Part shown: positions 17,205 through 61,153 of the stretch, piece by piece | Numbering within the stretch: position 1 is the first letter of the stretch | How the letters are laid out: each line of letters opens with the position of its first letter | Virus record (IMG/VR): IMGVR_UViG_3300019477_000133 | Span: 6,076-70,075 of that record | Reading direction: 5' to 3' (one strand) | DNA from: a virus | Length of the DNA stretch: 64,000 nucleotides | Program-made: the position numbers and the translations under genes | Notes under the pieces: model-generated | Told to the model about the DNA's origin: nothing | Seen by the model: the letters and a program-made list of their open reading frames with translations, nothing else | The model's database searches: none

Positions 17205-18857
17205 ATGTCACAGAATTTATTTATCGAGGCAACAAAGTACAAACAGTATACTTTTACTGAGAATGGTGCACTTACAATGGCTTCAACAGGAAGCGAGTTA
17301 GCTAATCAGTTTGGTTTAGCTGGTAATTATCGTGGACGTAATATTTCAGATGTATTCTCAGACCAAGAGAAACTTTGGAATGAATCACATGAATATTCTA
17401 CACGTTTTCCTTTCTATCTGCGAATGATTACACGAAAGGTTAAAGTTAATAATGATACCACTACAGACAATGTACAGAGTGGACAAGGTCAGCGTGACGA
17501 AACTTTTAAAAGACTTCTGTGGCTTGCAAAGTATCATAAGGATACTTTCAATAATAACGTGTGGATTTTGCCTCTTATTGGGTCTTGGAAGGATTTATGG
17601 GCTATCATGTATTACGATGAGAAATTTGAAATCAATGCTATTGATAGAGAAATCATCTACAGAATAATTCATGAAGGACTCAAGTGTGATGCACATGTAA
17701 ATCTTGTTAAGAAGTTTATGCCTCGCATTAAGTCAAAATCTCACATTAAGACTGATTGGAATAAGCTTACAAATAAGTATGCCAAAGAATTTGCTAAGTT
17801 ATTCTCATTGTCTTACAAAGAGTATAATCATCTTAAGACTTCTGGAACATCTCATGATTTCCAAAAGTTGATGTGTTCAAGAAATTATGATAAGATTAAA
17901 TGGAATACAATTCCAGGACGTGCATTGAGTATAATTACCAATGGTAAATTCTTAGAGAATCATAACCTTATTGATTCATACACAGAGTGGGTTCTTAAGC
18001 AGGATAATATCAAGTTTACAGGTTATCCATATGAGTTAATCAAAAACTTGAAGAAACATTGTTACATTTATTATAATAGAAAGAATAATATTTCAGTTCT
18101 TCCTAAGTACATTACGACAACCATTAATAAGCAATTTAATGAGTTGATAGAAAAAGGTAAGAATGTCGGTGGTATCAATGGAAATGTATGGTGTGCATTA
18201 GACACATCTGGTTCTATGAACACAGGTGTACATGGTGATACTACAGCATTAGATATATGTCTTTCATTAGGACTTTATTTTTCAACACTTAATACAGGTG
18301 CATTCCATAAGAATGTAATCATGTTTGATGATACCTCTCGTGTATTGCAGCTTAAGGGTGAGTTCTGTGATATGATGAAGCAGATTCCTGATAATGCAAT
18401 GGGTGGAACTAATTTCCAATCAGTTGTTGATGAAATAGTAAGAATAAGAACTAAACATCCAGAGATTCCACTTACAGATTATCCTCAAACACTTTTAGTT
18501 GTATCAGATATGCAATTCAATGCCACAAATAATTATTGGATTCAATCTACAGATGTAGAAAATACGACGAATTATGAAGAGGCTAAGAAGAAGTTGAAGA
18601 GTGTATTCCCAGAGGAATTTGTTGATGAGTTCAGATTCATTTGGTGGAATTGTGCTTCTCGGCATACAGACTTCCCTGCAACAATTAAGGACGGAGGATG
18701 TTATTTCTTGAGTGGTTTTGATGGTTCTATTATTTCTTTACTGTTAGGTGGAGAAGAAGTAGATACCAACACAGGTGAGAAGAAGAAGTTAAGTATGGAA
18801 GAGTTAATGCATAAAGCACTTACTCAAGAGATTCTTAATTATATTGTAGTTGAATAA
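17205..18857 (+). CDS. vWA-domain protein with a TROVE/DUF2828-like N-terminus (Ro60-like architecture)
   Basis: MIDAS motif in WCALDTSGSMN followed by vWA-like alpha/beta segments; ~320-aa N-terminal helical region; promoter tatctttgcaac at 17169. Confidence 0.5.
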   Translation: MSQNLFIEATKYKQYTFTENGALTMASTGSELANQFGLAGNYRGRNISDVFSDQEKLWNESHEYSTRFPFYLRMITRKVKVNNDTTTDNVQSGQGQRDETFKRLLWLAKYHKDTFNNNVWILPLIGSWKDLWAIMYYDEKFEINAIDREIIYRIIHEGLKCDAHVNLVKKFMPRIKSKSHIKTDWNKLTNKYAKEFAKLFSLSYKEYNHLKTSGTSHDFQKLMCSRNYDKIKWNTIPGRALSIITNGKFLENHNLIDSYTEWVLKQDNIKFTGYPYELIKNLKKHCYIYYNRKNNISVLPKYITTTINKQFNELIEKGKNVGGINGNVWCALDTSGSMNTGVHGDTTALDICLSLGLYFSTLNTGAFHKNVIMFDDTSRVLQLKGEFCDMMKQIPDNAMGGTNFQSVVDEIVRIRTKHPEIPLTDYPQTLLVVSDMQFNATNNYWIQSTDVENTTNYEEAKKKLKSVFPEEFVDEFRFIWWNCASRHTDFPATIKDGGCYFLSGFDGSIISLLLGGEEVDTNTGEKKKLSMEELMHKALTQEILNYIVVE

Positions 18858-18917: not shown

Positions 18918-19805
18918 ATGAAAAATTGGGAAAAAATTTTTAATACAATGGTATATTCTACCCTACAATATCTAAATGATTATGGAATTAATAATATGAT
19001 TTTAGGTATTTCTGGTGGTATAGATTCAACACTTGTAGCTGCTATTTGTCATGAAGTGGTAAAACGTTCTGATGGAAAAAAGAAGTTATTAGGATATTCT
19101 CTTATGTGTTCTACTAATCAATCAGATGAAGTAAAAGCAGCAGAAATGGTCGGTAAATCTTTATGCACGGAGTATCAGAGTATTAATTTGGAAGAAGATT
19201 ATAATACTATTTCAAGTAGTTTATCAAATCATTTCAAAGTAGATTCACCAATTGCTAATGGTAATATTAAAGCAAGATTGAGGATGCTATATCTTTATCA
19301 TTGTGCTTCAATTTATAATGGTATAGTTATGGACACTGATAACTATAGTGAACACCAACTTGGTTTTTGGACATTACATGGTGATGAGGGAGACTTTAAT
19401 CCTATTGGCGAATTATATAAGACCGAAATATATGAATTATGCGAATGGCTTTGTACTAAATATTACGTAAATGATAAAGATATCAGGCAAGCAATAGAAG
19501 AATCATATAAATTAACTCCTACAGATGGAAATGGTGTTAAGATGGGTGGTGACATGGCGCAGATTGCACCAGGACTAACTTATAAAGAAGTAGATAGAAT
19601 ACTTTTTGAAACTCAGATATGGGGTTGCCATAAGTATAATGACATCATTCTAAAAAGACTTTCTGAAGAGAAATGGTTTGATGAAGATATTGTCAAAGGC
19701 GTTATTAATAGAGTTAAAAATAGCGCATTTAAACGCAGACATCGTCCATTAAAAATTGATTTGGGGACAGGTGAAATAACACAGCAAATTTGTAAAGAAA
19801 AATAA
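18918..19805 (+). CDS. nadE: NH3-dependent NAD+ synthetase
   Basis: PP-loop LGISGGIDSTLVAAIC; NadE-specific NIKARLRMLYLY...MDTDNYSEHQLGFWTLHGDEGDFNPIG. Confidence 0.8.
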   Translation: MKNWEKIFNTMVYSTLQYLNDYGINNMILGISGGIDSTLVAAICHEVVKRSDGKKKLLGYSLMCSTNQSDEVKAAEMVGKSLCTEYQSINLEEDYNTISSSLSNHFKVDSPIANGNIKARLRMLYLYHCASIYNGIVMDTDNYSEHQLGFWTLHGDEGDFNPIGELYKTEIYELCEWLCTKYYVNDKDIRQAIEESYKLTPTDGNGVKMGGDMAQIAPGLTYKEVDRILFETQIWGCHKYNDIILKRLSEEKWFDEDIVKGVINRVKNSAFKRRHRPLKIDLGTGEITQQICKEK

Positions 19806-24380: not shown

Positions 24381-24393
24381 GAAAAAAGTTACC

Positions 24394-24461
24394 GAAAAAT
24401 TTGGAGGTTTCAAAAAAAGTTAGTATCTTTGCATCACAATTAAGAAATAAGAGTTCTTTGA
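24394..24461 (+). promoter_or_regulatory. 68-nt promoter block (gaaaaatttggaggtttcaaaaaaagttagtatctTTGcatcacaattaagaaa...gagttctttga) duplicated at 27324-27391, where it sits 19 nt upstream of tRNA-Lys
   Basis: near-identical duplication; contains the -7-like tatctttgca. Confidence 0.55.
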
Positions 24462-24479: not shown

Positions 24480-24558
24480 GTCAAATATAATTAGGAAACG
24501 TACAGCAAAAGAATTTGAATAGGGTTCATGAGGGTTGGTTCGATTCCAAAATGTGACC
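24480..24558 (+). tRNA. tRNA-like element / possible pseudo-tRNA: acceptor-like pairing gtcaaat/atgtgac and a GGTTCGATTCC T-loop, but no canonical D or anticodon arm
   Basis: starts 19 nt after the promoter block, the same spacing as tRNA-Lys after the duplicate block; cloverleaf incomplete by hand. Confidence 0.2.
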
Positions 24559-24608
24559 GCAATAGGTACGTTTAGTGTATTGGTAGCACGCATTTTGTTT
24601 CCTTAACA

Positions 24609-24681
24609 TGTGACATGGAGAAGTGGCATCTCGGTGGCAAACTTATAGCTGCAGTCATTGGTTCGATTCCAATTGTCGCAA
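24609..24681 (+). tRNA. tRNA-like element, 73 nt: acceptor tgtgaca/tgtcgca, D-stem gaga/tctc, T-arm attgg-ttcgatt-ccaat, anticodon arm not foldable
   Basis: hand fold; likely a degenerate or non-canonical tRNA. Confidence 0.3.
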
Positions 24682-24711
24682 CATTTGAAAACCAATTTTA
24701 ATTTTTAAATA

Positions 24712-27079: not shown

Positions 27080-27313
27080 ATGACAGTAGATAACCTTATA
27101 CCATTATTAAATGGTCATGCAGAATTAAGATGTGTCATAGAAAAGAAAATAGCTGAATACAAAATTATAGCTACTGATGGACACGAGTACTTAATAGATA
27201 TAGATATTAGTGACAAGAAAGATGTAAAACCTCAAAAATGCATAAAATGTGAATATATTAACGATTTACTAAGGAAAATCAACCAAAATAATGATTTTAT
27301 AAAAATAAAATAA
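27080..27313 (+). CDS. hypothetical protein
   Basis: 77-aa ORF. Confidence 0.3.
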   Translation: MTVDNLIPLLNGHAELRCVIEKKIAEYKIIATDGHEYLIDIDISDKKDVKPQKCIKCEYINDLLRKINQNNDFIKIK

Positions 27314-27323
27314 AAAAAATCAC

Positions 27324-27391
27324 TGAAAAATTTGGAGGTTTCAGAAAAAGTTAGTATCTTTGCATCACAATTAAGAAACAAGAGTTCTTTG
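27324..27391 (+). promoter_or_regulatory. second copy of the 68-nt promoter block, driving the tRNA cluster
   Basis: duplicate of 24394-24461 with 2 mismatches. Confidence 0.55.
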
Positions 27392-27409
27392 ACTTATTGG
27401 AACAACAGA

Positions 27410-27482: not shown

Positions 27483-27496
27483 ACAACTGAAAAAAA

Positions 27497-27649
27497 TAAT
27501 AGGTAGCCGTACTACCGAATTTACGCTTGTGGACTATCCTCCTATGGATGACTGATTGTAGCAATACAATGTACTAAAAAGTAATGATAGGTTGAAGCAA
27601 GAAGTGAAAAGTACCCAAATCATATATTTGCGTAGATTTTCATATACGG
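27497..27649 (+). ncRNA. orphan copy of the ~155-nt structured RNA found immediately 3' of tnpB (omegaRNA-like scaffold); no adjacent tnpB
   Basis: about 95% identical to 33871-34029 apart from an internal hairpin that differs with compensatory changes (attgtagcaatacaat versus attgagtagtaaactactcaat). Confidence 0.55.
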
Positions 27650-27853
27650 TCCTGAGTTCGAGTCCCAGTGGGCAACTCATACATTTACAAAAAGTAATAC
27701 CCATGCAAATGGTTTCTTGGCTAAGAATGATGCTAATTGTAATTTTAAACAAAACTAATTCAGTAATTGATAGAATTTAGTCGACATAAATTCTTGATAG
27801 CTACGTTGGTAACGTTACAACCAAATTATATCCTATTACATATAGGAGAATCA

Positions 27854-27927
27854 CAGTGCATTAGTTCAGTAGGTTAGAATACTGCCCTGTCACGGCATAG
27901 GTCACGGGTTCGAGTCCCGTATGCACT
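27854..27927 (+). tRNA. tRNA-Asp(GTC)
   Basis: acceptor agtgcat/atgcact, anticodon loop ctGTCac, T-arm acggg-ttcgagt-cccgt. Confidence 0.75.
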
Positions 27928-27936
27928 GCATAAAAT

Positions 27937-28031
27937 CTTCTGTGTGCTGTTATGGTATCAGACGTGCGAAAGCAGCATTGGTTTAATCCAAAAGAGCAGA
28001 GCGTTTAGTTGGTTCGAATCCAACCACAGAA
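27937..28031 (+). tRNA. atypical 95-nt tRNA-like RNA: perfect 7-bp acceptor ttctgtg/cacagaa and T-arm gttgg-ttcgaat-ccaac, with an abnormal anticodon/variable region carrying the motif aaaagagcag
   Basis: hand fold; anticodon unresolved; may contain an intron or insertion or be a tRNA-like ncRNA. Confidence 0.3.
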
Positions 28032-28044
28032 GATACTTACAACC

Positions 28045-28166
28045 ACCTCACTTAGCTCAGTTGGTTAGAGCGACGTTACCAAGAATTTTTCCTGTATGGA
28101 AAAGAGCAGCAAAGTTTAAATTTGATTTGTAATCCGTGTGTCATCGGTTCAAGTCCGATAGTGAGG
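28045..28166 (+). tRNA. atypical 122-nt tRNA-like RNA: acceptor cctcact/agtgagg (7/7), canonical D-arm gctc-agttggtta-gagc, T-arm atcgg-ttcaagt-ccgat, ~50 nt extra in the anticodon/variable region. Internal hairpin ttttc-ctGTAtg-gaaaa could be a Tyr anticodon arm. Shares the aaaagagcag...gttta motif with 27937-28031.
   Basis: hand fold. Confidence 0.3.
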
Positions 28167-28176
28167 TGGAATTTTA

Positions 28177-28248
28177 TTAGGGGATGGAGCAGAGGTAGCT
28201 TGCTGGGCTCATAACCCAGAGGTCGGGGGTTCGACTCCCTCTCCCCCA
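28177..28248 (+). tRNA. tRNA-Met/Ile2-type (CAT), copy 1
   Basis: anticodon stem ctggg/cccag with loop ctCATaa, T-arm ggggg-ttcgact-ccctc; one A.C mismatch in the acceptor stem. Confidence 0.65.
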
Positions 28249-28317
28249 ACAACTTAGGAAACAAACAGCAGATTTTCTCTTTTTTTATGGAATAAAAATA
28301 ATAATGTTTCCTTAACT

Positions 28318-29294: not shown

Positions 29295-31175
29295 ATGAAT
29301 AAACTAATAGTAAAATCAATGCTACTTATTATAGTAGCAGTACCTATGCTGGTATCATGTAGTTCAGATGATATTGTTGACCACGTGCAATCGGTTGAAC
29401 AGCAAAGTAATGTAACAACTATTTATGTGCACACTCCGCAGAAGCCAGAGACTCGTGCTACGGTAGTGGGTGCTTATGATGTGCCTAATGTAGTAAACAG
29501 CACGTATCCAACATCAGGCAAAATAACAAGTTATAAGTACATTTGGTCCGTTGGCGACAAGCTTTATACGTATGACCCAATCAACGATTTTGTCAGCACA
29601 TTTATATGTAAGTCAGTTGATGGCGATGCAGGAGCTACATTTATTTCTACAAATGCTAAGTGGACTACAGGCAGTAAAATCTACCTGTTTGCATCAAGAG
29701 AGGAGCCTACAGTGATTAACCATAATGAGGTGAATTTCAATTATATCAATCCAGCTAACGCAGGCTTTGCATGGGGAGATGCTGACAAGAACACGGCAGT
29801 GCTTACCAATACAAACTTTACAGGTGTAGGCGAGATAGAAAAGTGCCCAGAACTTGCTAATAATGGTACTCCTGTAAGAATGGAATGTACACTTGATGTT
29901 ACGCCATCTATGACAATGTACTTCCGTGATATGATGCATGATTATCAGAGCGTTTCATTGACACAAAGTGTAAAGAAAGGTGCATACGATGGTTATTATG
30001 ACGGTGCAACATACAACTTGCTTACTAAGAAGTACACTCCAGGCATGCTTCGAAACACATGGCTTACTCTATCAAATAAGAATCCAGATAGTTTCGGCAA
30101 AGGAGTGATTTATATGCCTTTGGCTGAAACGAAGTACGACAAAGTAACTATCTCTCTTATTGGTAAAAACAAGAACATAGAGGGTGATGAGACTACAGTA
30201 CGCAGCATCAATATAAAGAAGAATTTTGATGCAACTGCACAGAGTAACTATTACAACCTCGGCGATATGGCTAAATGGCCTAAGGATGCAGACCATCTAT
30301 ACATCATTGGTGACGCAACACCTTTTGGATGGGCACAGTCTACTTCAAAAACTGATAATAGTACACGTATTTGGCCTTTTACTCAGAAGATGAAGAATGA
30401 AGGAAATGGCGTATTTACATATATTGGTCCAGCTTTAGGTTCTAATGCGCCAACACAAATGTACCAACCATTGGATACAATACATCGGAATATAAGTAGT
30501 GGCAATGGAACATTTAAGTTCTACTTCTTCAATAACGGTCTTTATGAGTGTGCAGGTCTTCTGCGTGATACAGGCAATGAAACTGATAATGTGACTACTG
30601 CTTACTATTCTACTTATGATAATGCAAAACGTTATGCAGATTCTAAGTGGAAAGTAAATGAAGCTAAGGTTCATAAGATTACGGTTAACGTGCGTACTAA
30701 TAAGGTGACAGTAGAACCTTACACAGGTGCACCACTGCCTGAACTGAAGATTACAAAACAAGATGGTGCTAAGGTAACTATCAATAAACTTTGGTTGTTC
30801 GGTTCAGCAACTCCTGATAATGTTAACTATATTTCTACCAGACCCCTCGCATTTAATTATAATGCAGTAGACGACCCAAATCACTTTGTATGGGAAGGCT
30901 ATTTGAAAGCTGGTTATGTTAAGTTTCCCTATATCTTTGGTGATTACGATTTTCATCAGTCAAGTTATTTGATGCCTATAGACGGTAATACTACAGCCCC
31001 ACTTACAGTTGGTGTGTTTTATGTACATCCAGCTTCTATTATAGATGGCACCCCTATGAAAATGAAAGTCGGGGTAGATGGAGGTCATGATAATCAGTGG
31101 AAAATAACTACTCCTGGTAAATACAGAATAGTTGTAGACGTAAATAAAATGGAAGTTACTTTTATAAAGAAGTAA
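29295..31175 (+). CDS. large surface lipoprotein (lipobox LVSCSS)
   Basis: signal peptide plus Cys: MNKLIVKSMLLIIVAVPMLVSCSSDD; 626 aa; locally higher GC than the phage average. Confidence 0.6.
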   Translation: MNKLIVKSMLLIIVAVPMLVSCSSDDIVDHVQSVEQQSNVTTIYVHTPQKPETRATVVGAYDVPNVVNSTYPTSGKITSYKYIWSVGDKLYTYDPINDFVSTFICKSVDGDAGATFISTNAKWTTGSKIYLFASREEPTVINHNEVNFNYINPANAGFAWGDADKNTAVLTNTNFTGVGEIEKCPELANNGTPVRMECTLDVTPSMTMYFRDMMHDYQSVSLTQSVKKGAYDGYYDGATYNLLTKKYTPGMLRNTWLTLSNKNPDSFGKGVIYMPLAETKYDKVTISLIGKNKNIEGDETTVRSINIKKNFDATAQSNYYNLGDMAKWPKDADHLYIIGDATPFGWAQSTSKTDNSTRIWPFTQKMKNEGNGVFTYIGPALGSNAPTQMYQPLDTIHRNISSGNGTFKFYFFNNGLYECAGLLRDTGNETDNVTTAYYSTYDNAKRYADSKWKVNEAKVHKITVNVRTNKVTVEPYTGAPLPELKITKQDGAKVTINKLWLFGSATPDNVNYISTRPLAFNYNAVDDPNHFVWEGYLKAGYVKFPYIFGDYDFHQSSYLMPIDGNTTAPLTVGVFYVHPASIIDGTPMKMKVGVDGGHDNQWKITTPGKYRIVVDVNKMEVTFIKK

Positions 31176-32615: not shown

Positions 32616-32688
32616 AGCCCCATCGACAAGCGGTTTAAGTCGCCACTCTTTCACGGTGGAGTCACGAGTTCGAATCTCGTTGGGGTTA
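32616..32688 (+). tRNA. tRNA-Glu(TTC), copy A
   Basis: acceptor agcccca/tggggtt, anticodon stem ccact/ggtgg with loop ctTTCac, T-arm acgag-ttcgaat-ctcgt. Confidence 0.7.
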
Positions 32689-32716
32689 CTAACAATTCTA
32701 AAAAAAAATAATAAAA

Positions 32717-33859
32717 ATGTTAAGAGGGATTAAGATAAGATTATATCCAAACAATACACAAGAGCAGGTACTCAATAAGGTGCTTGGGTGTTACCGTTTT
32801 GTTTATAACCAAATGCTTGCTCGAAAACAGAATGCTTATAAAACAGATAAAACAAACTTATCTGTTACCGATTTATCAAAATGGTTTCATGGAACATTGT
32901 TAAAGGATGAACAATATGCTTGGCTGAAAGAACAGAACACGAAGGTGATGAAACAAGCAATCAGACAAATGGATGGTGCTTACCAAAACTTCTTCAAACA
33001 ACATAATGGTTTTCCAAAATTTAAAACAAAGAAGGATAAACAATCGGCATTATTCCCATATGAAGCCATTTCCAAAAAGAATACATTTGAAACCAAACAT
33101 ATCAGTTTGACAACCTCATTAAAGAATATTAAGTTCCGTTGTTCAGATTTGTATTTCAGAAGATTACAAAAGTATAATAAGAATATAAGAAGTGCTACCT
33201 TATCGAAGACCAAGAGTGGTAATTTCTTCTTATCTATCCTTGTTGAATTGGATGATACTGAATTAAAGAAATTTGAACATACAAACAAGCAAGTTGGTAT
33301 TGACCTTGGAGTCAAAGATTTTGTAATCACGTCTGATGGTGAGGTATTTGATAACAAACATTTTTTCAAAGAGAAAGAGAAAGAAGTAAGGATGCTTCAA
33401 AGACAATTGTCAAGAAAAGTTAAAGGTTCTAACAATTGGAATAAGCAACGTGTTAGAATTGCAAAAGCATTTGAAAGACTTACCAACCAAAAGGAAGCCT
33501 ATATACATAGTGTTGTGAATGAGTTATTAACTTATTATGACACTGTATTTATGGAAGACTTGAATGTGAAAGGAATGCTAAAAAATCATCATCTTGCCAA
33601 AGCTATACAAGAGGTTAGTTTCTATAAGTTCAAGGAAATATTGTTTAGCAAGTCACTTGTTAACGATAAAAGTGTTGTGTTTATTGAAAGATTCTATCCA
33701 TCAAGCAAGACTTGCTCACAATGCGGTTATAAGAAACGAGACTTGAAGTTAAGTGATAGATTTTGGATTTGCCCTGAATGTGGGACAAAACATGACAGAT
33801 ATGTTAATGCTGCCATAAACATATTGTTGGAAGGTCAACGAATACTGGCAGCGGTGTAA
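32717..33859 (+). CDS. tnpB: TnpB (OMEGA RNA-guided nuclease, IS200/IS605 OrfB family), catalytic motifs intact
   Basis: N-terminus IKIRLYPNNTQEQ; RuvC-I VGIDLGVKD; RuvC-II VFMEDLNVKGM; zinc finger CSQCG...CPECG; RuvC-III HDRYVNAAINIL. Confidence 0.85.
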   Translation: MLRGIKIRLYPNNTQEQVLNKVLGCYRFVYNQMLARKQNAYKTDKTNLSVTDLSKWFHGTLLKDEQYAWLKEQNTKVMKQAIRQMDGAYQNFFKQHNGFPKFKTKKDKQSALFPYEAISKKNTFETKHISLTTSLKNIKFRCSDLYFRRLQKYNKNIRSATLSKTKSGNFFLSILVELDDTELKKFEHTNKQVGIDLGVKDFVITSDGEVFDNKHFFKEKEKEVRMLQRQLSRKVKGSNNWNKQRVRIAKAFERLTNQKEAYIHSVVNELLTYYDTVFMEDLNVKGMLKNHHLAKAIQEVSFYKFKEILFSKSLVNDKSVVFIERFYPSSKTCSQCGYKKRDLKLSDRFWICPECGTKHDRYVNAAINILLEGQRILAAV

Positions 33860-33870
33860 TAAAAGAAATA

Positions 33871-34029
33871 ATTAGGTAGCCGTACTACCGAATTTACGCT
33901 TGTGGACTATCCTCCTATGGATGACTGATTGAGTAGTAAACTACTCAATGTACTAAAAAGTAGTGATAGGTTGAAGCAAGAAGTGAAAAGTACCTAAATC
34001 ATAGATTTGCGTAGATTTTCATATACGGT
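33871..34029 (+). ncRNA. candidate omegaRNA (right-end RNA) scaffold of TnpB; begins 11 nt after the tnpB stop codon
   Basis: conserved with 27497-27649 including a covarying hairpin; the position matches where IS605 omegaRNAs are encoded. Confidence 0.55.
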
Positions 34030-35351: not shown

Positions 35352-35915
35352 ATGAAAATAGGATTTTTGCTTGGTAGTTTCGACCCGATACATATTGGTC
35401 ATGTGCAAATGATTAATAGTGTTCTGAATAGTGGCTTTGATAAAGTTATAGTTGTACCAACTGTTCAGAATCCATGGAAGGATTCTAAAGCTACTGATTT
35501 TGCTTATCGTTGCCAAATGATAGAGAATGCAATTTCACATTTTGGAGATAAATGCTGCCTTTCTAAGGATGAATTATTGGTTGATGGTACAAACTATTCA
35601 TATAAAGTATTATCGCTTCTTAGAGAGAAATACAAAGACAATGAGTTATTTATCATAGCTGGTTCTGATTGTGTTAATGACATACCGAAATGGAAAAATT
35701 ATAATTCAGATATAGAACCATATTTTTCTATTGCTGGATTAAAAAGAAATAAGACGGATGAAATTCCAGATTATGCGATACCAATAGAACAAGATATTGT
35801 TATTCCTATTTCCTCGACATACATAAGACGAATGGTAAAAGAAAAGAAAATTTTTTTTCCATATATAAATGCTGAAAATGAAAAGTTGATAAAAAAGTTG
35901 AATTTGTATCATTAA
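35352..35915 (+). CDS. nadD: nicotinate(amide)-nucleotide adenylyltransferase
   Basis: N-terminal nucleotidyltransferase motif GFLLGSFDPIHIGHV (GxFxPxHxGH). Confidence 0.7.
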   Translation: MKIGFLLGSFDPIHIGHVQMINSVLNSGFDKVIVVPTVQNPWKDSKATDFAYRCQMIENAISHFGDKCCLSKDELLVDGTNYSYKVLSLLREKYKDNELFIIAGSDCVNDIPKWKNYNSDIEPYFSIAGLKRNKTDEIPDYAIPIEQDIVIPISSTYIRRMVKEKKIFFPYINAENEKLIKKLNLYH

Positions 35916-42900: not shown

Positions 42901-43881
42901 ATGGAAGATTTAGTTACAAAGCAACTTAGGAAACGTTTCCTCAAGGATTTTAATCTACCTATCCAAGTAATACAAGACCCTTACTTTACAGAGCGTCTTG
43001 AACTATGCGGTGCTACTCAAGATTATAATAATCTTCTTGAATACATCGACACCAATTATAGTGGTAGTTATAGAGCATTCTTAGATGCTTATGCACAAAT
43101 AAGAGATGAAATTGTTACTTCATGTTACAACTCAGAAGCGTTTAAACTGTTCAACAACAGTGACATTAAAGGTGAAAATCCATTGATTCCACAACGGAAC
43201 TTGTATACTGAAGAACAAGATGGAAATAGTTTTGTAAGCGTTGATTTAAAGAAAGCAAACTTTCAAGCACTTAAATATGTTAATTCCGAAATAGTCCTTA
43301 ATACTGATACATATGAAGGATTTATAGGAAAGTTCACGGATAGTGAATATATTAAGAAGTCAAAATATACAAGACAAGTTATCTTTGGAAAACTTAATCC
43401 GAAAAAGACAATTAGTATAGAGAAACGTATTATTAATAAAATTTATAAGACGCTTAATGATAAGTTCAATCTGACTGAATATTTAGAACCATATTCTATG
43501 TGTACAGATGAAATTATCTACAAAGTGAAAGATAACAATAATAACGTATTGACAGATTTGCTGTGTGATAAATCTTTAATGATGATGGAACAAATTATTA
43601 AAGACACACTCGGGTTTGAAGTACGCATTAATTATTTCGGTCTTAAGTTACATCAATTCAAGCTTGCTACATCGGAAGCAAAAGTCAATTCTTTCACTAA
43701 ATTGAATCATGTAACAAATGAGGTGTCTTATGCGTGTATTCCATCTACATACTATCCACAGATTTACAAATTAATTAATGGTTTAGATGTAACTAAGAAT
43801 GACCTTGTTTTTTATTATGAACATGAGTTGGCGACATTCTTAAACCCATTGGTAAAATTAAATAAAGATAATGAAATTTAA
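42901..43881 (+). CDS. hypothetical protein
   Basis: 326-aa ORF after the promoter acctttgcaacat. Confidence 0.5.
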   Translation: MEDLVTKQLRKRFLKDFNLPIQVIQDPYFTERLELCGATQDYNNLLEYIDTNYSGSYRAFLDAYAQIRDEIVTSCYNSEAFKLFNNSDIKGENPLIPQRNLYTEEQDGNSFVSVDLKKANFQALKYVNSEIVLNTDTYEGFIGKFTDSEYIKKSKYTRQVIFGKLNPKKTISIEKRIINKIYKTLNDKFNLTEYLEPYSMCTDEIIYKVKDNNNNVLTDLLCDKSLMMMEQIIKDTLGFEVRINYFGLKLHQFKLATSEAKVNSFTKLNHVTNEVSYACIPSTYYPQIYKLINGLDVTKNDLVFYYEHELATFLNPLVKLNKDNEI

Positions 43882-45172
43882 AATCAAAGATAAAAAGATA
43901 GAAAAAACCATCCATACAATACGTGCACTTATCAAAGGAACCAAATTTGAAGGTGTTACGTATGTTGTAGGTGGTTTTGTACGTGATACGTTAATGGGAG
44001 AAGTATCTAATGATTTAGACATTGTTGTTAATCTCCCGTCTGGTGGAATAGATTTAGCGAATACTTTAACAGAGTTGGATAATAGTCATAGTGACTCTAA
44101 TCCTATTGTATATCCTAAGTATGGTACCGCAAGCTTTCATTTAAAGAATAATGATGAATATTCTGATGTTGTTATTGAGTCTGTGGAAACACGGAAAGAA
44201 CAATATCATTCAGAATCACGTAATCCAGAAACATGTTTTGGAACTTTAGAAGAAGATGCATTTAGAAGAGACCTTACAATTAACGCATTGTATTACAATA
44301 TCTCAACAGATAAAGTAGAAGATGTTACTGGAAAAGGACTTGATGATTTGAAAAATCATGTTATCAGAACTACAAATGATAACCCTAACATAGTTTTCTT
44401 TGATGACCCATTGCGTATAATGAGAGTTATCAGATTTGCAAATAGATATGGCTGGAATATAGAAGAGAAGACGTGGAAATCATTGCAAGAATGTGCTTCA
44501 AGAATAAAGATTATTTCTAAAGAAAGAATACGTAATGAGTTGAATAAGATAATTGCCAATAAAGACTGTATAAATGGTTTGAATTATTTAAAAGATAGTG
44601 GTATTTTATCTTATATTCTTCCCGAACTATTTGAACAATGTTTTGTTCCATGTTCACAGGACTTTAATAGTATGTTTGATAAAATAGTTACAATATGTAG
44701 TCAAGCACCTATATGTTTATATACTCGTCTTTCAATTCTATTATCATTTTGCAAAACAGATAGCGCATGTGAAACTATTCTATCTCATCAAAAGCAACCG
44801 AATGTAATAATAAAGCATGTGCAGAATGCACTGTTAGGTAAAAACTTCAGAAGAGAAGACGAAGAATTAGAAGTATCTTTACGTAGATTATATAAGAAAT
44901 GTAACCAAAATATAGATAATGCATTATGGGTGTATCGAGTTTTTACAGATGAAGAAACTTATAACGAAACGGTAAATACGTGGCTAAAGATAAAAGATAG
45001 TGCTAAAATTTATCTTCCGATAGATGGAAATGAAATCTTCTCATATCGTGCAGATATTACAAATAATGACAGAAAATTATTAATTGATTATCTACACGAA
45101 GAACAATGCAAAAATCCTTTCTTAACAAAAGAAGAATGTGTTGAATTAATTAAACAATATCAGTTACATTAA
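43871..45172 (+). CDS. cca: tRNA nucleotidyltransferase (CCA-adding enzyme) / poly(A) polymerase family
   Basis: head-domain motif YVVGGFVRDTLMG...NDLDIVV (GGxVRD ... DxD); FRRDLTINALYY matches motif RRDxTINA. Confidence 0.7.
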   Translation: MKFKIKDKKIEKTIHTIRALIKGTKFEGVTYVVGGFVRDTLMGEVSNDLDIVVNLPSGGIDLANTLTELDNSHSDSNPIVYPKYGTASFHLKNNDEYSDVVIESVETRKEQYHSESRNPETCFGTLEEDAFRRDLTINALYYNISTDKVEDVTGKGLDDLKNHVIRTTNDNPNIVFFDDPLRIMRVIRFANRYGWNIEEKTWKSLQECASRIKIISKERIRNELNKIIANKDCINGLNYLKDSGILSYILPELFEQCFVPCSQDFNSMFDKIVTICSQAPICLYTRLSILLSFCKTDSACETILSHQKQPNVIIKHVQNALLGKNFRREDEELEVSLRRLYKKCNQNIDNALWVYRVFTDEETYNETVNTWLKIKDSAKIYLPIDGNEIFSYRADITNNDRKLLIDYLHEEQCKNPFLTKEECVELIKQYQLH

Positions 45173-45180
45173 AAAAATAA

Positions 45181-45747
45181 ATGAATATGAATAAATTACT
45201 ATTGATTGTTGACCCACAATACGATTTCATTAATGGAACGTTGCCTGTGGATAAAGCTGAACAGAAGATGAATGCTTTGTGTGAATACATTAAGAAACAC
45301 AATGACTACAAGACTATAGTTATTACAGCAGACTGGCACCCAGAGAGCCATTGCTCTTTTAAAGAAAATGGTGGAGAGTGGCCTAAACACTGTATCGCCT
45401 ATACACATGGTGCTGCCATTTATGAACCAATTATTCAAATTCTAAGAGATTTAAAAATAAATTATAAAGTTCTTACTAAAGGAACGGACTCTAAAGAAGA
45501 AGAATATTCTGTTTTTCTTAATGATGAGTCATATGATTGGTTGACTAAAACAGTAGCTAAAGAAAATATTGACCAGATTGATATCTGTGGTATTGCTGGA
45601 GATGTTTGTGTACATGATACATTAGTAAGTGGTATAAATGAGTTTGGAAACGAGAAATTTAATATACTTATGGATTACTGCCCATGTATAAATGATGATT
45701 TTTTACTTAAATCTCTTAATGTAAATAAAACTTATGGCAAGAATTGA
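45181..45747 (+). CDS. pncA: nicotinamidase / isochorismatase-family hydrolase
   Basis: LLLIVDPQYDFINGTLPV N-terminus plus a conserved Lys/Cys context (ITADWHP...H, GIAGDVCV). Confidence 0.6.
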   Translation: MNMNKLLLIVDPQYDFINGTLPVDKAEQKMNALCEYIKKHNDYKTIVITADWHPESHCSFKENGGEWPKHCIAYTHGAAIYEPIIQILRDLKINYKVLTKGTDSKEEEYSVFLNDESYDWLTKTVAKENIDQIDICGIAGDVCVHDTLVSGINEFGNEKFNILMDYCPCINDDFLLKSLNVNKTYGKN

Positions 45748-45967: not shown

Positions 45968-47149
45968 ATGATTAAATCAATTTTAGATACAGATTTGTAT
46001 AAATTCAGTACTTCATATGCTTATTTTCATAAGTTTAATAGAGCGGAGGGAACATTTAAGTTTAACGACAGAAACAAAGAAGATTGGAGAAACTATCCAA
46101 ACTTTATGGATGAGATTGAGATACAAATTGAAAACTTATCCAATATTCGTCTTACAAATGAAGAAAGAGATTGGTGTGTTGAGAACATTGATTATATACC
46201 AGAGAATTATTGGGAATGGCTAAGTACTTTTCGTTTCAAACCAGAACTTATTAAGATGTGGCTGGATGACGATGGTGTCTTCCAGTGTGAGGTGACGGAT
46301 AAACTCTATCGTGTGACATTATATGAGATAGCTATTCTTGCCACATATGCCGAAGTAAGAAATCGAGTATTAGGAAATAAGATTAACATGGAGAAAACTA
46401 TGTTAAAATTAGAAGATAAGATTTCTTATGCTAATATGAATAGCCTCTGTTTTTCTGAATTTGGAACACGTAGACGATATAGTTTTAATGTACAAAATGA
46501 AGTCGTTAAACGACTAAAAGAAAAGTGCCCTGTATGTGCTGGAACAAGTAATGTGTATTTGGCAAAGAAACACCACATGCGACCTACTGGTACATTCCCT
46601 CACGAATGGATGATGTTTCATGCTGCTGTGTATGGATATAAGCGTGCGAACTACATGGGGCTTGAGGACTGGATTGATGTATATGAAGGTAATCTTGGTA
46701 CTGCGCTAATTGATACATATACTACTGAGTCGTTTCTTAGAACCTTAACCTTGCAGCAAGCTTTGCTTTTGAGAGGTTTCCGCCAAGATAGTGGTGATGA
46801 GTTTAAGATTGGTAATATGATTATTAAACGTTTACAAGAATTAGGAATCGACCCTAAGACTAAATTGCTTATCTTCTCAAATGCCCTTACATTTGAAAAG
46901 TATAAAGAAATTCATGATTACTTTAATGGACGTATTATGGTCTCAGCTGGAGTTGGCACAAATCTAACTTGTGATACAGATATCAAAGATTACAAACCAG
47001 CAAATATTGTCATGAAATTATCAAGAGCGAGATATAGTAGTAAAGACCCTTGGGAAAAGTGTATCAAAATTAGTGATGATATAGGCAAACACATGGGAGA
47101 TGCTAAGGAATTTGATAAAGCCATGAGTGATTTGCATTTGTCTGAATAA
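45968..47149 (+). CDS. pncB: nicotinate phosphoribosyltransferase
   Basis: N-terminus ILDTDLYKFSTSYAYFHKF matches the NAPRTase signature (LDTDxYKxxM). Confidence 0.7.
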   Translation: MIKSILDTDLYKFSTSYAYFHKFNRAEGTFKFNDRNKEDWRNYPNFMDEIEIQIENLSNIRLTNEERDWCVENIDYIPENYWEWLSTFRFKPELIKMWLDDDGVFQCEVTDKLYRVTLYEIAILATYAEVRNRVLGNKINMEKTMLKLEDKISYANMNSLCFSEFGTRRRYSFNVQNEVVKRLKEKCPVCAGTSNVYLAKKHHMRPTGTFPHEWMMFHAAVYGYKRANYMGLEDWIDVYEGNLGTALIDTYTTESFLRTLTLQQALLLRGFRQDSGDEFKIGNMIIKRLQELGIDPKTKLLIFSNALTFEKYKEIHDYFNGRIMVSAGVGTNLTCDTDIKDYKPANIVMKLSRARYSSKDPWEKCIKISDDIGKHMGDAKEFDKAMSDLHLSE

Positions 47150-59005: not shown

Positions 59006-61153
59006 ATGCGTACTTTACTAATTCTTAGAGGTTGTATGGGCAGTGGTAAGTCTACTTTCATTAAGGAAAATGGTCTTACTGATTACACATTGTCAGCCGA
59101 TGATATACGTTTAATGTTTCATTCTCCAAAGATGAATGAAGAGGGCGATATGACTATTAGCGCACGTTCCGATAAAATGGTATGGGATACATTGCATACT
59201 ATGCTTGAGAACCGTATGCGTAATGGTGATTTCACTGTTATTGATGCTACACATAAGACATCTAAGGCTGTATCTAAGTATGTAGAATTAGCTGACAAGT
59301 ATCGCTATAATTGTTATCAGCATAATGTCGAGGCAACCTTGGATGAATGTTTGGAACGTAATTTGTTACGTGACCCAGTAAGACGTGTTCCAGACATTGA
59401 TATTCGTCGTGCATACAATATGCTTCAAGAAAATAAGTTGTCTAATCGTTTCAAGGAAGTTAATGATGTAGATGACATTCTCAATTATTACATTACCGAT
59501 GCTTCTGCATACAAGGAAGTAAAGATTATAGGTGATGTACATGGTTGTCACACATGCCTTTTAGAAGCTATTGGTGGCTCTTTAAACCCAGACGTGTTAT
59601 ATGTATTCGTTGGTGATTATTTCGACCGTGGTATCGAAAATAAAGAAGTGTATGAGTTCCTATTGTCACATTATAATGATGACAACGTGGTCCTTCTTGA
59701 AGGAAATCACGAGAAGCATATCTGGCGTTTGATTAACGGTGAGGAGATAACTTCAGAATACTTCAAGATGACACTTGATGAGATAACCAAGGTTTATCCA
59801 TTGGAACAGGTTCGTAAGGAGTTAAAGAAAATTTACTATCGTATGCGTCAGTGTTTTGCATTCACATACCGTGGTAAGAAATACTTGGTAACACATGGTG
59901 GACTTACATCTGTTCCAAATCTTACAACTATTCCAACAAACGACATGATTAAGGGTGTTGGGGGATATGATATGGAAGTAGATAAGATATATGAAGATAA
60001 TTATTTGCTTGGGAAGTGTCAGGACTTTATACAAGTACATGGTCATCGCAATACTCTTTCTACCGAACATTCAATTTGTCTTGAAGATTGTGTTGAATTT
60101 GGCGGTAACTTAAAGGTTTTCTCTATAACACCAGAATATGCTTCTATATTAAAATACGAAAATAAAGTGTTTAGTATAGATAATATGAATGCTTTTCAGC
60201 AAGTAGTATATAAGGTTGATGACCCAGAAGTTAAGAAGATAATGAATAGTCGTCTTGTTAATGTAAAGGGTTGTAAGCATAACATGTACTCTATCAACTT
60301 TAATCGTAATGCATTTATTGGAAAGAAATGGAACTTTGCTACTATCAAGGCACGTGGTTTATTTGTTGATAAGAATACAGGAGAAGTAAAGATGCGTTCT
60401 TATGATAAGTTCTTTAATATTGATGAACATAAGACAACTAAGAGAAATAAACTTGAAGAAACTCTTAAGTTCCCAGTAAAAGTAACGATAAAGGAGAATG
60501 GATATCTTGGAATTATGTCAGTAGTAGACAATCAGTTAGTATTTGCTTCCAAAACAACTGACAGTGGTCCTTTTGCTGAACGTTTTGAACGTATTTTTAA
60601 CGAAACTGTTAGTAAGCACGATAAAGACCTATTGAAGAATATCCTGAAGAAAGAGAATGCTTCGGCTGTGTTTGAAGTGATTAGTCCTACAGAAGACCCA
60701 CATATTATTAGATATGAAAAGGAAGAAGTGGTATTGCTGGACATTATCCATAATGTGCTTAACCTTGGTGAAAACTATACAGAAGAGTCAGATAAGTTCA
60801 AGAATTTCTTAAGAGAAAATACATCTTTGAGAATGCCAGACGAATTAGTTATTAATACTAATGATGAGTTATGGGAATACCTACGGACTAATATAGGAAC
60901 TAATGATTCCGTAGAAGGTGTTGTAGTCACAGATGCTACTGGATTCAAGTTTAAAGTAAAGTTCAATTACTATCTAATGGTGAAGAACCTTAGACGTATT
61001 ACTCAGATATTCAGAAAGTGTAAGCGTGATGGTACGCCATTTAACGAAAAAATATGTCGTAATGATATGGAAAAGAATTTCGTTAATTTCCTTGAAAAAG
61101 AAGATGATGGAGAAATGAGTATCATTGATTTATATGATAAATTTCAAAAATAA
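59006..61153 (+). CDS. pnkP: polynucleotide kinase-phosphatase with a C-terminal nucleotidyltransferase (ligase-like) domain (bacterial Pnkp-like RNA repair enzyme)
   Basis: P-loop LILRGCMGSGKSTF; calcineurin-like phosphoesterase motifs GDVHGC / GDYFDRG / GNHE; ligase motif I-like KVTIKENGYLG. Confidence 0.65.
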   Translation: MRTLLILRGCMGSGKSTFIKENGLTDYTLSADDIRLMFHSPKMNEEGDMTISARSDKMVWDTLHTMLENRMRNGDFTVIDATHKTSKAVSKYVELADKYRYNCYQHNVEATLDECLERNLLRDPVRRVPDIDIRRAYNMLQENKLSNRFKEVNDVDDILNYYITDASAYKEVKIIGDVHGCHTCLLEAIGGSLNPDVLYVFVGDYFDRGIENKEVYEFLLSHYNDDNVVLLEGNHEKHIWRLINGEEITSEYFKMTLDEITKVYPLEQVRKELKKIYYRMRQCFAFTYRGKKYLVTHGGLTSVPNLTTIPTNDMIKGVGGYDMEVDKIYEDNYLLGKCQDFIQVHGHRNTLSTEHSICLEDCVEFGGNLKVFSITPEYASILKYENKVFSIDNMNAFQQVVYKVDDPEVKKIMNSRLVNVKGCKHNMYSINFNRNAFIGKKWNFATIKARGLFVDKNTGEVKMRSYDKFFNIDEHKTTKRNKLEETLKFPVKVTIKENGYLGIMSVVDNQLVFASKTTDSGPFAERFERIFNETVSKHDKDLLKNILKKENASAVFEVISPTEDPHIIRYEKEEVVLLDIIHNVLNLGENYTEESDKFKNFLRENTSLRMPDELVINTNDELWEYLRTNIGTNDSVEGVVVTDATGFKFKVKFNYYLMVKNLRRITQIFRKCKRDGTPFNEKICRNDMEKNFVNFLEKEDDGEMSIIDLYDKFQK

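Follow-up and report, generated by a model that had tools for sequence, protein, structure and literature searches.

Long tRNA-like 'stable RNAs' have been known in the tRNA clusters of the bacteriophages T4 and T5 since the 1970s-80s, and to our knowledge their function has never been explained. In the T5 record (NC_005859) two of them are annotated as 'tRNA-like stable RNA with unknown functions', RNA1 of 144 nt (30501-30644) and RNA2 of 125 nt (32959-33083). The intron search of ARAGORN (-i) called the former as a tRNA-Leu(taa) in which a canonical CUUAAAA loop is adjoined by a 40-nt insert, and the latter fitted the acceptor/T-arm frame at 120 nt. The T4 molecules, rnaC (139 nt) and rnaD (119 nt), which are the species 1 and species 2 RNAs, follow the tRNA-Arg in the tRNA cluster.

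The pair of RNAs described here was found in a 64,000-nt stretch of viral DNA, which is called the window in the following; all features given below are on its + strand. The phage is a large one, its relatives being IMG/VR contigs of 210-350 kb. With default settings ARAGORN detected 16 ordinary tRNAs in the window, the majority of which stand on one strand as an array, between 24.6 and 34.1 kb. The two long RNAs, RNA1 (27938-28032, 95 nt including the discriminator G28032) and RNA2 (28046-28167, 122 nt including the discriminator T28167), lie within this array, co-oriented with the flanking tRNA-Asp (27855-27929) and tRNA-Met (28178-28250), and there is no terminator-like site on the + strand between them and the neighbouring tRNAs. 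They were called neither by default ARAGORN nor by the Rfam tRNA model RF00005 (at the gathering score or at E<=10). An earlier, sequence-only reading had proposed two tRNA-like RNAs of 95 and 122 nt at this place, having perfect 7-bp acceptor pairing and canonical T arms; these are real, the ends given for them were right to within 1-2 nt, and both structural elements were recovered from the sequence by our own scan. A TnpB element sits inside the tRNA array, tRNA fragments were seen at 24534-24560 and 27648-27680, and NAD-salvage genes are also encoded in the window.

RNA2 is the more complete of the two. Its acceptor stem consists of seven perfect pairs (CCTCACT, 28046-28052, with AGTGAGG, 28160-28166), and the segment 28053-28075 comprises U8, A9, a canonical D arm (GCTC-AGTTGGTTA-GAGC), G26 and the anticodon-stem nucleotides 27-29 (ACG). 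The D arm TAGCTCAGTTGGTTAGAGC, located by our own scan at 28053-28071, was rightly described earlier as a textbook one. The next 48 nt (28076-28123; 47 nt in most relatives) form an insert between nucleotides 29 and 30, which contains the hairpin TTTTCC-TGTAT-GGAAAA (28087-28103) with an invariant stem and a loop that varies between G and A. Nucleotides 30-43 follow at 28124-28137, that is GA, the anticodon loop TTTGTAA (28126-28132) with U33, the anticodon UGU (28128-28130) and A37, and then TCCGT. The segment 28143-28166 holds the T arm (ATCGG-TTCAAGT-CCGAT, 28143-28159) and the 3' acceptor strand. All five pairs of the split stem ACG|GA : UCCGU are of the Watson-Crick type, the loop UUUGUAA has the expected U33 and purine 37, and the variable loop GUGUC (5 nt), G18G19 and G15:C48 are canonical. 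Thus the extra sequence noticed earlier in both RNAs does lie within the anticodon arm, but it does not extend to the variable arm, which has the normal 5 nt in RNA2. The hairpin that had been taken for a tyrosine anticodon arm with GTA is located inside the insert, its loop reads TATA rather than TGTA in relatives, and the true loop is found downstream with UGU.

The intron search of ARAGORN called RNA2 at the default threshold as a tRNA-Thr(tgt) with a 48-nt intron. Since the program is forced to put introns in the loop, the placement at 28076-28123 (29|30) is regarded here as the better reading. When exactly these nucleotides are removed, the junction becomes GAGCGACG|GAUUUGUAAUCC (also given as GAGCGACG|GATTTGTAATCC) and a perfect cloverleaf is obtained, with the stem ACGGA/UCCGU, U33, A37, G18G19, G15:C48 and a canonical T loop. 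Two other foldings were considered and rejected. A longer helix, in which TTAC:GTAA is stacked on ACG:CGT, contains a C:G35 pair which is broken without compensation in three of the seven haplotypes known for RNA2, and pairing of the insert motif with the D stem (GAGC:GCTC) was ruled out by the GAAC carried by relatives. As judged from its sequence, RNA2 is a complete tRNA body whose anticodon stem is split by an insert.

RNA1 has an equally perfect 7-bp acceptor stem (TTCTGTG, 27938-27944, with CACAGAA, 28025-28031) and a T arm GTTGG-TTCGAAT-CCAAC (28008-28024), which together with the 3' acceptor strand occupies 28008-28031. Its D arm is weak (CTG-T...GG...-CAG, 27947-27961, 3 bp), and the two substitutions seen there in two relatives, C>T at 27947 and G>C at 27961, are not compensatory. 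The equivalent of the anticodon arm (27963-27977) consists of CGTGC, the loop GAAAGCA and GCA (nucleotides 39-41). A 24-nt insert follows between nucleotides 41 and 42 (27978-28001), made up of the hairpin TTGG-TTTAAT-CCAA and AAGAGCAGAG. Removal of exactly this insert gives a 73-nt cloverleaf with the perfect stem CGTGC/GCACG, which is accepted by ARAGORN at its default threshold. The loop has A33 and C37 in place of U33 and a purine at 37, both non-canonical, and to judge by this loop RNA1 cannot be a credible decoder even when it is freed of its insert.

The two RNAs have several features in common. A 7-bp acceptor stem, a T loop of the TTCRANT type and a D arm bearing GG are present in both, the D stem of RNA1 having just 3 bp. 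Their inserts are located on opposite strands of the anticodon stem, at nucleotides 29|30 of the 5' strand in RNA2 and 41|42 of the 3' strand in RNA1, and both consist of a hairpin directly followed by AAGAGCAG. The inserts share the motif AAAAGAGCAG (27990-27999 in RNA1, 28100-28109 in RNA2), and the nonamer AAAGAGCAG has no copies in the 64 kb other than the one in each insert (27991-27999 and 28101-28109). A common 10-mer was found between random 24-nt and 48-nt segments of the window in 0.24% of the trials. An origin of the insert as an IS200/605 footprint, or a relation to the nearby TnpB, was considered and rejected, as nothing similar was found elsewhere in the window. The shared motif reported by the sequence-only reading therefore stands for the window, where it is found once per insert, but it is not kept in this form by the relatives: four of the seven RNA2 haplotypes have GAACAG in place of GAGCAG, and GTTTA has become TTTTA in one lineage. 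In addition, the acceptor stems of both RNAs can be lengthened by three pairs between leader and trailer, giving 10-bp terminal stems (27935-27937 with 28032-28034 in RNA1; CCA, 28043-28045, with TGG, 28167-28169, in RNA2). The outermost of these pairs in RNA2 is A:T instead of C:G in one relative (ACA/TGT). In the acceptor/T-arm scan of the window, 13 ordinary tRNAs showed zero or one such extra pair, and RNA1 and RNA2 were the only RNAs found by that scan which had 10-bp terminal stems. A search of other loci from phages and metagenomes, about 1.5 Mb in total, for a strict frame of acceptor stem plus TTCRANT T arm exceeding 93 nt gave essentially only copies of RNA1 and RNA2, and the ARAGORN intron search made one other intron call, of 675 nt on an unrelated contig.

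Comparison with the T4 and T5 molecules showed both the affinity and the differences. Like RNA1 and RNA2 of T5, the RNAs of the window are found in a tRNA cluster on the tRNA strand and have acceptor, T and D arms, with the extra sequence (40-50 nt in T5) in the anticodon arm; like them, rnaC of T4 ends in a canonical T arm (CCGGG-TTCGAAT-CCCGG). The features that define the class, namely a location in a tRNA cluster on the tRNA strand without a terminator, an acceptor stem and T arm, and extra sequence in the anticodon arm, were all seen in the window RNAs, and the total size taken for the class was 100-145 nt. However, the T5 inserts either interrupt the boundary of stem and loop (31|32) or take the place of the loop, whereas those of the window are inside the stem, and no similarity between the inserts was seen, by inspection only. 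Leader and trailer add one extra pair in T5 RNA2, the only T5 RNA checked for this, versus three in the window RNAs, and no Ro-like gene was among the matches listed for T5, unlike in the window (see below). The T4 rnaC and rnaD lack a recognisable complete cloverleaf or anticodon loop and have no sequence similarity to the window RNAs. RNA1 and RNA2 thus add new variants, unrelated in sequence, to an old class of phage stable RNAs, and are closest to T5 RNA1/RNA2 and T4 rnaC. If the T5 annotation reflects the observed RNA sizes, members of this class would accumulate unspliced.

DNA-pattern and protein-anchored scans recovered RNA2 from over 20 loci of viral and metagenome contigs, which make up seven haplotypes; many of these loci are repeated retrievals of a contig already counted. 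Not one of the 29 proposed pairs changes within this set; they comprise the acceptor stem with two leader/trailer pairs, the T stem, the D stem, the hairpin of the insert and the split halves of the anticodon stem. Variation is restricted to 15 columns, none of which is paired (P=4.3e-5). There is no covariation, all the stems being invariant in what is a shallow set of close relatives. No insert-free copy of RNA2 was met in the viral and metagenome collections scanned; the comparison with related phage loci, which had been recommended earlier, showed the insert kept in every RNA2 copy found. Scans of viral contigs, metagenomes and genomes gave no distant homologues of either RNA, only close relatives, all of them bearing the insert, while the matches of the loose-motif viral scan and the genome scan were chance ones in ORFs. 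Relatives found through the downstream 626-aa protein have another tRNA arrangement and are without RNA1 and RNA2.

The window and its nearest variant show two differences in more than 400 nt, both in the anticodon loop of RNA2, at nucleotides 32 and 35. Across the haplotypes the loops UUUGUAA, AUUUUAA, CUUGUAA and CUUAUAA occur, giving the anticodons UGU, UUU or UAU; U33, U34, U36, A37 and A38 are fixed and only nucleotides 32 and 35 vary, and the change of G35 to A is seen in two different sequence backgrounds. Going by this pattern, the anticodon of RNA2 behaves like an exposed and selected loop. The ordinary tRNAs of the relatives also switch anticodon, for example from Glu(ttc) to Lys(ttt). 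RNA1 is confined to a sub-lineage, in which it acts as an indel module, present or absent, and it is missing from many members. It has 2 substitutions in its 95 nt versus 6 in the 13 nt of the adjacent spacer (Fisher 2e-5). Since RNA1 has a loop unsuited to decoding and is nevertheless conserved above the level of the spacer, at least one member of the pair would have a non-decoding role.

Four readings of these data were weighed. The one we prefer, at a probability of roughly 0.4, is that RNA1 and RNA2 are tRNA mimics that function without being spliced and may serve as decoys for nucleases of the anticodon-stem type. We prefer it because the pairs are invariant and the insert is never absent, because RNA1 is conserved in spite of its non-decoding loop, because of the 10-bp terminal stems, because neither a bulge-helix-bulge nor an Rfam ribozyme was found, nor a splicing endonuclease among about 45 window ORFs, and because T5 and T4 provide a precedent. 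According to this model both RNAs would be cut from the polycistronic tRNA transcript and would persist unspliced as stable mimics, like T5 RNA1/RNA2 and T4 rnaC; their stability, their ends and their lack of splicing are all inferred from the sequence. The split stem would still pair, in such a way that the insert projects as an extra arm, and this arm would keep the RNA off the ribosome, the L-shape and the anticodon loop staying exposed. In the most speculative step the mimic would engage a tRNA-directed protein, most plausibly a host nuclease of the Toprim type (PARIS AriB or the OLD class), for which we infer the role of partner, and would serve as an uncleavable competitor or decoy in which the insert blocks the cleavage.

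The choice of this partner is suggested by what is published about these enzymes. In tRNA-Thr(UGU) a paired CNG motif is cut by P2-OLD on the 3' side of C28 and of C40 (PMC12445682), and cuts of the AriB/OLD type were placed at 28|29 and 40|41 in tRNA-Thr UGU and tRNA-Lys UUU (PMC12409363, PMC12445682). The exchange A41C protects tRNA-Lys against AriB, and the possibility that viral tRNAs are competitive inhibitors was raised by the authors (PMC12409363). Damage caused by P2-OLD cannot be repaired by phage ligases (PMC12445682). RNA2 has U36AAUC and then C41, the residue which makes tRNA-Lys resistant to AriB (PMC12409363, PMC12445682), and it has the paired arrangement C28-G29-[insert]-G30 / C40-C41-G42, in which the insert is located inside the 5' CNG motif, between G29 and G30, opposite the 40|41 step. 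In RNA1 the insert is one nucleotide 3' of 40|41. The ordinary tRNA-Thr(UGU) of the phage (32440-32513) has the anticodon stem ACTGA/TCAGT, a paired CNG motif and UAAUCA, and this stem represents the motif which the same papers call sensitive. The anticodons UGU and UUU of RNA2 match the main targets of AriB and OLD, but UAU is not among the reported ones. The nuclease-resistant phage tRNAs already described (T5 Lys, Thr and Asn against AriB; tRNA-Thr against P2-OLD) are similar to the window RNAs in having the anticodons UGU and UUU and in that their changes concentrate at the stem positions 28-30 and 39-41. They differ in being contiguous, with point substitutions or a shortened stem, and none of them has a large insert. 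RNA1 has neither the CNG nor the UAAUC motif, which counts against a decoy, and the insert sites are offset by one nucleotide from the published cut sites, and the match could be coincidental. The presence in the phage of an enzyme for healing and sealing RNA, the shared motif not being strictly conserved and the spacer-like divergence of the insert also count against the mimic reading.

The main rival is that the inserts are true intervening sequences, a reading which fits the perfect reconstitution of the stem and the presence of a ligase. A putative endonuclease, or a new small ribozyme, would excise the insert of RNA2, and perhaps that of RNA1, and the exons would be joined by the enzyme encoded at 59006-61153, in which polynucleotide kinase and phosphatase are fused to an RNA ligase of the T4 Rnl1 type; the product would be a decoding tRNA-Thr(UGU), or Lys(UUU) or Ile(UAU) in the relatives. 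We consider this possible but rather unlikely. It is favoured by the perfect cloverleaf left after removal of the RNA2 insert, by the ARAGORN -i call at the default threshold in view of its very low background rate, and by the anticodon switching, in which RNA2 behaves just as the ordinary tRNAs of the relatives do. The intact tRNA-Ile(tat) of one relative has the acceptor, the D arm and the T loop of RNA2, and this resemblance suggests descent from an uninterrupted tRNA. The window encodes, besides the kinase-phosphatase-ligase, a CCA-adding enzyme (43871-45172), and it is known that T4 Pnkp and Rnl1 can replace the yeast tRNA ligase. The exact reconstitution of a 5-bp stem and a 7-nt loop fits splicing and the mimic reading equally well.

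On the other side, the inserts do not belong to any of the intron types that were tried. The suggestion that the RNAs contain introns was borne out insofar as ARAGORN calls RNA2 with a 48-nt one, but a standard intron it is not. Archaeal bulge-helix-bulge introns are similar in that they, too, are short, interrupt otherwise complete tRNAs and may have a non-canonical place, the anticodon stem among others, and they are removed by cutting and ligation; they differ in that the 4-bp helix between two 3-nt bulges, expected at the splice sites, is absent from both junctions, that no endonuclease was found in the ORFs scanned and that the setting is that of a bacterial virus. By manual check, the GCGA before the 5' bulge of RNA2 cannot pair with the AAAU before the 3' bulge, GCAG would stand opposite GCAG in RNA1 with no pairing, and the alternative junction of ARAGORN fails too. 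A group I intron, which would be expected to interrupt the anticodon loop with a ribozyme core of at least about 200 nt, was rejected: the inserts have 24 and 48 nt and are in the stem, and there was no Rfam intron match at E<=10. A length of 48 nt is far too short for either a group I or a group II intron. No Rfam ribozyme was detected in the region even at permissive thresholds, only generic tRNA-like noise (YrlA, tmRNA, Tymo tRNA-like), and a tmRNA was dismissed on the grounds that ARAGORN -m made no call and the Rfam tmRNA model gave 8 bits.

Further objections to splicing come from the enzymes and from the RNAs themselves. No candidate for a splicing endonuclease was seen among the approximately 45 window ORFs scanned (the genome is roughly 340 kb), a literature search for short phage tRNA introns found nothing, and we know of no protein-dependent tRNA splicing in bacteria. 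The nick would be in duplex RNA, which suits a ligase of the Rnl2 type better than Rnl1. RNA1 minus its insert would still be without a usable anticodon loop, the leader/trailer pairing, absent in ordinary tRNAs, would hinder the maturation of the ends, and the annotation of the T5 analogue is that of a stable RNA of full length. Splicing accounts neither for the loop of RNA1 nor for the lengthened terminal stems. The narrower version, in which RNA2 is a genuine intron-bearing tRNA, its insert at 29|30 being neither of the bulge-helix-bulge nor of the group I type, removed by a new small ribozyme or by an endonuclease of the phage or its host and sealed by Pnkp-Rnl1, is in our estimate unlikely.

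The remaining two readings are less likely. RNA1 and RNA2 might be insertion-disrupted, decaying tRNA pseudogenes, carried as passive passengers of a recombining tRNA array. The array is indeed in flux, as is seen from the indel behaviour of RNA1, the tRNA fragments and the TnpB inside it; the D stem of RNA1 is weak and its loop non-canonical, and between the window and one relative the RNA2 insert has diverged by about 11%, much as neighbouring spacers and some tRNAs have. However, every substitution avoids the stems in the seven haplotypes (P=4e-5), the stem of the insert hairpin is invariant and RNA1 is far better conserved than the spacer. Moreover, two tRNA bodies that are otherwise unrelated have the same type of insert at equivalent positions of the stem, and with it a common extension of the terminal stem, and decay is therefore in our judgement very unlikely.

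The last reading starts from the protein encoded at 17205-18857, 9 kb upstream of the two RNAs and not adjacent to them, for which a Ro60-like nature had been claimed from the sequence. It matches Pfam DUF7788, DUF2828 below the cut-off, and PHROG 850 ('RNA-binding protein'), and by tblastn it is similar to a mycobacteriophage 'Ro-like RNA binding protein'. Sequence and profile searches of it against PDB gave no match. Its AlphaFold model from a 26-sequence alignment had a pLDDT of 69 (34 for the single-sequence model), and the sole PDB match of the model below E=1e-3 in Foldseek was the Ro protein of D. radiodurans (2nvo, E=2.3e-4, 541 columns, TM 0.39-0.42). The claim stands in so far as the protein has a predicted Ro-like fold.

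YrlA RNAs are tRNA mimics, and the YrlA family (RF02553) resembles the present case in being a tRNA-mimicking non-coding RNA in a genome which also encodes a Ro-type protein. In a 426-kb relative, RtcB is encoded about 7 kb downstream of the homologous Ro-like gene, which recalls the bacterial rsr-yrlA-rtcB operon. On these grounds RNA1 and RNA2 could be Y-RNA-like partners in the repair or quality control of RNA, the tRNA-shaped body and the insert being bound by the DUF2828/DUF7788 protein; we hold this to be improbable. The YrlA model gave 17.9 bits at 28002-28076, a match spanning the two genes, and 16.5 bits over tRNA-Asp, far below the gathering threshold of 69 and attributable to generic T-arm/D-arm similarity; the former combines the T arm of RNA1 and the D arm of RNA2 in the order that any adjacent tRNA pair gives. 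The topology is also the opposite one: YrlA is circularly permuted relative to the window RNAs, with a closed acceptor-like hairpin and ends in the Ro-binding stem, whereas the ends of RNA1 and RNA2 pair as an acceptor stem lengthened from 7 to 10 bp. The earlier suggestion of YrlA-type Y RNAs accordingly fails. The Ro-like family is present in 678 phage records, most of them without RNA1 and RNA2, while the RNAs are confined to one lineage, in which RNA1 is often missing, and neither in the window nor in the mycobacteriophage Faith1 does an Rfam or YrlA-type match adjoin the Ro-like gene. Nothing ties the Ro-like protein specifically to RNA1 or RNA2.

The locus is a cleaner example of the T4/T5 stable-RNA class than those described before, having a complete tRNA body and a live loop that switches between UGU, UUU and UAU. 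The insert of RNA2 is at the anticodon-stem step which PARIS AriB and P2-OLD attack in tRNAs with UGU or UUU, and this makes the decoy hypothesis a testable one. Splicing, if true, would be the first case of cut-and-ligate tRNA splicing outside archaea and eukaryotes, which would be even more surprising than a decoy.

An intact tRNA-Ile(tat) gene is found in relatives of the phage (L145, 6496-6570, and also L146 and L150). Comparison of this tRNA with RNA2, the second of the two tRNA-like RNAs carrying inserts in the anticodon stem, revealed a close match in the acceptor (CCTCGCT in the tRNA-Ile), the D arm and the TTCAAGT T loop, and on this resemblance the tRNA-Ile(tat) is likely an uninterrupted paralogue of RNA2. 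In case of the ordinary tRNAs, the Glu(ttc) tRNA at 32616-32689 of the window corresponds to Lys(ttt) in the relative L148 (15447-15520), and the Lys(ctt) tRNA at 24609-24682 has an orthologue with the anticodon att in L147 (9897-9970). Judging from these sequence comparisons, anticodon remoulding seems common in the lineage of this phage.

The Lys(ctt) tRNA is itself unusual, its Rfam score being only 37.9 bits. Upstream of it lies an orphan element resembling a T arm, GTTGGTTCGATTCCAA (24534-24560), and after this comes ATGTGAC, with which the acceptor strand of the next tRNA begins; the element appears to be left over from a partial tandem duplication of the Lys(ctt) tRNA. An 80-nt repeat was also observed at 24382-24461 and 27313-27392 (94% identity between the copies). 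The two tRNA-Lys genes, at 24609 and 27411, are each preceded by one copy at a distance of approx. 20-150 nt, and the repeat may represent a promoter or leader common to both.

The tRNA array also harbours a gene for TnpB, an IS200/IS605 RNA-guided nuclease (32717-33859, + strand). The approx. 165 nt directly 3' of its stop codon (33863-34029) occur a second time at 27490-27650 with 94-96% identity. This second copy is without TnpB and adjoins a tRNA 3' fragment with the T-arm-like sequence GGTCCTGAGTTCGAGTCCC (27648-27666). A tRNA may have been disrupted by this copy, which would be either a solo right end or an omega-RNA-like sequence.

RNA1 of phage T5 (L180, 5502-5645, - strand), which its annotation describes as a stable, tRNA-like RNA with no known function, was called by ARAGORN with intron search as tRNA-Leu(taa) with a canonical CUUAAAA loop and a hairpin-containing insert of 40 nt where the 5' stem strand meets the loop. 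In the unrelated viral contig L134 (11228-11996, - strand), a tRNA-Leu(taa) is interrupted by an intron of 675 nt that probably belongs to the classical group I type.

A polynucleotide kinase, a metallophosphatase and a T4 Rnl1-type RNA ligase are fused in a single 715-aa protein (59006-61153, + strand), which together with the CCA-adding enzyme (43871-45172, + strand) forms a complete tRNA repair toolkit. In the 400-kb relatives the order sigma factor, Ro-like gene, tyrosyl-tRNA synthetase, NAD synthase is kept (L161, 18425-19780; L160 and L161, 11951-13964), and in one of them RtcB lies approx. 7 kb downstream of the Ro-like gene, resembling the linkage of rsr and rtcB in bacteria. The window carries four NAD-related genes (18918-19805, 35352-35915, 45181-45747 and 45968-47149), comprising NAD synthase, a cytidylyltransferase-like (NMNAT-type) protein, an isochorismatase/nicotinamidase-like protein and nicotinate phosphoribosyltransferase. 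Gut jumbo phages have been reported to carry NAD+ synthesis genes, and the present set fits these reports.
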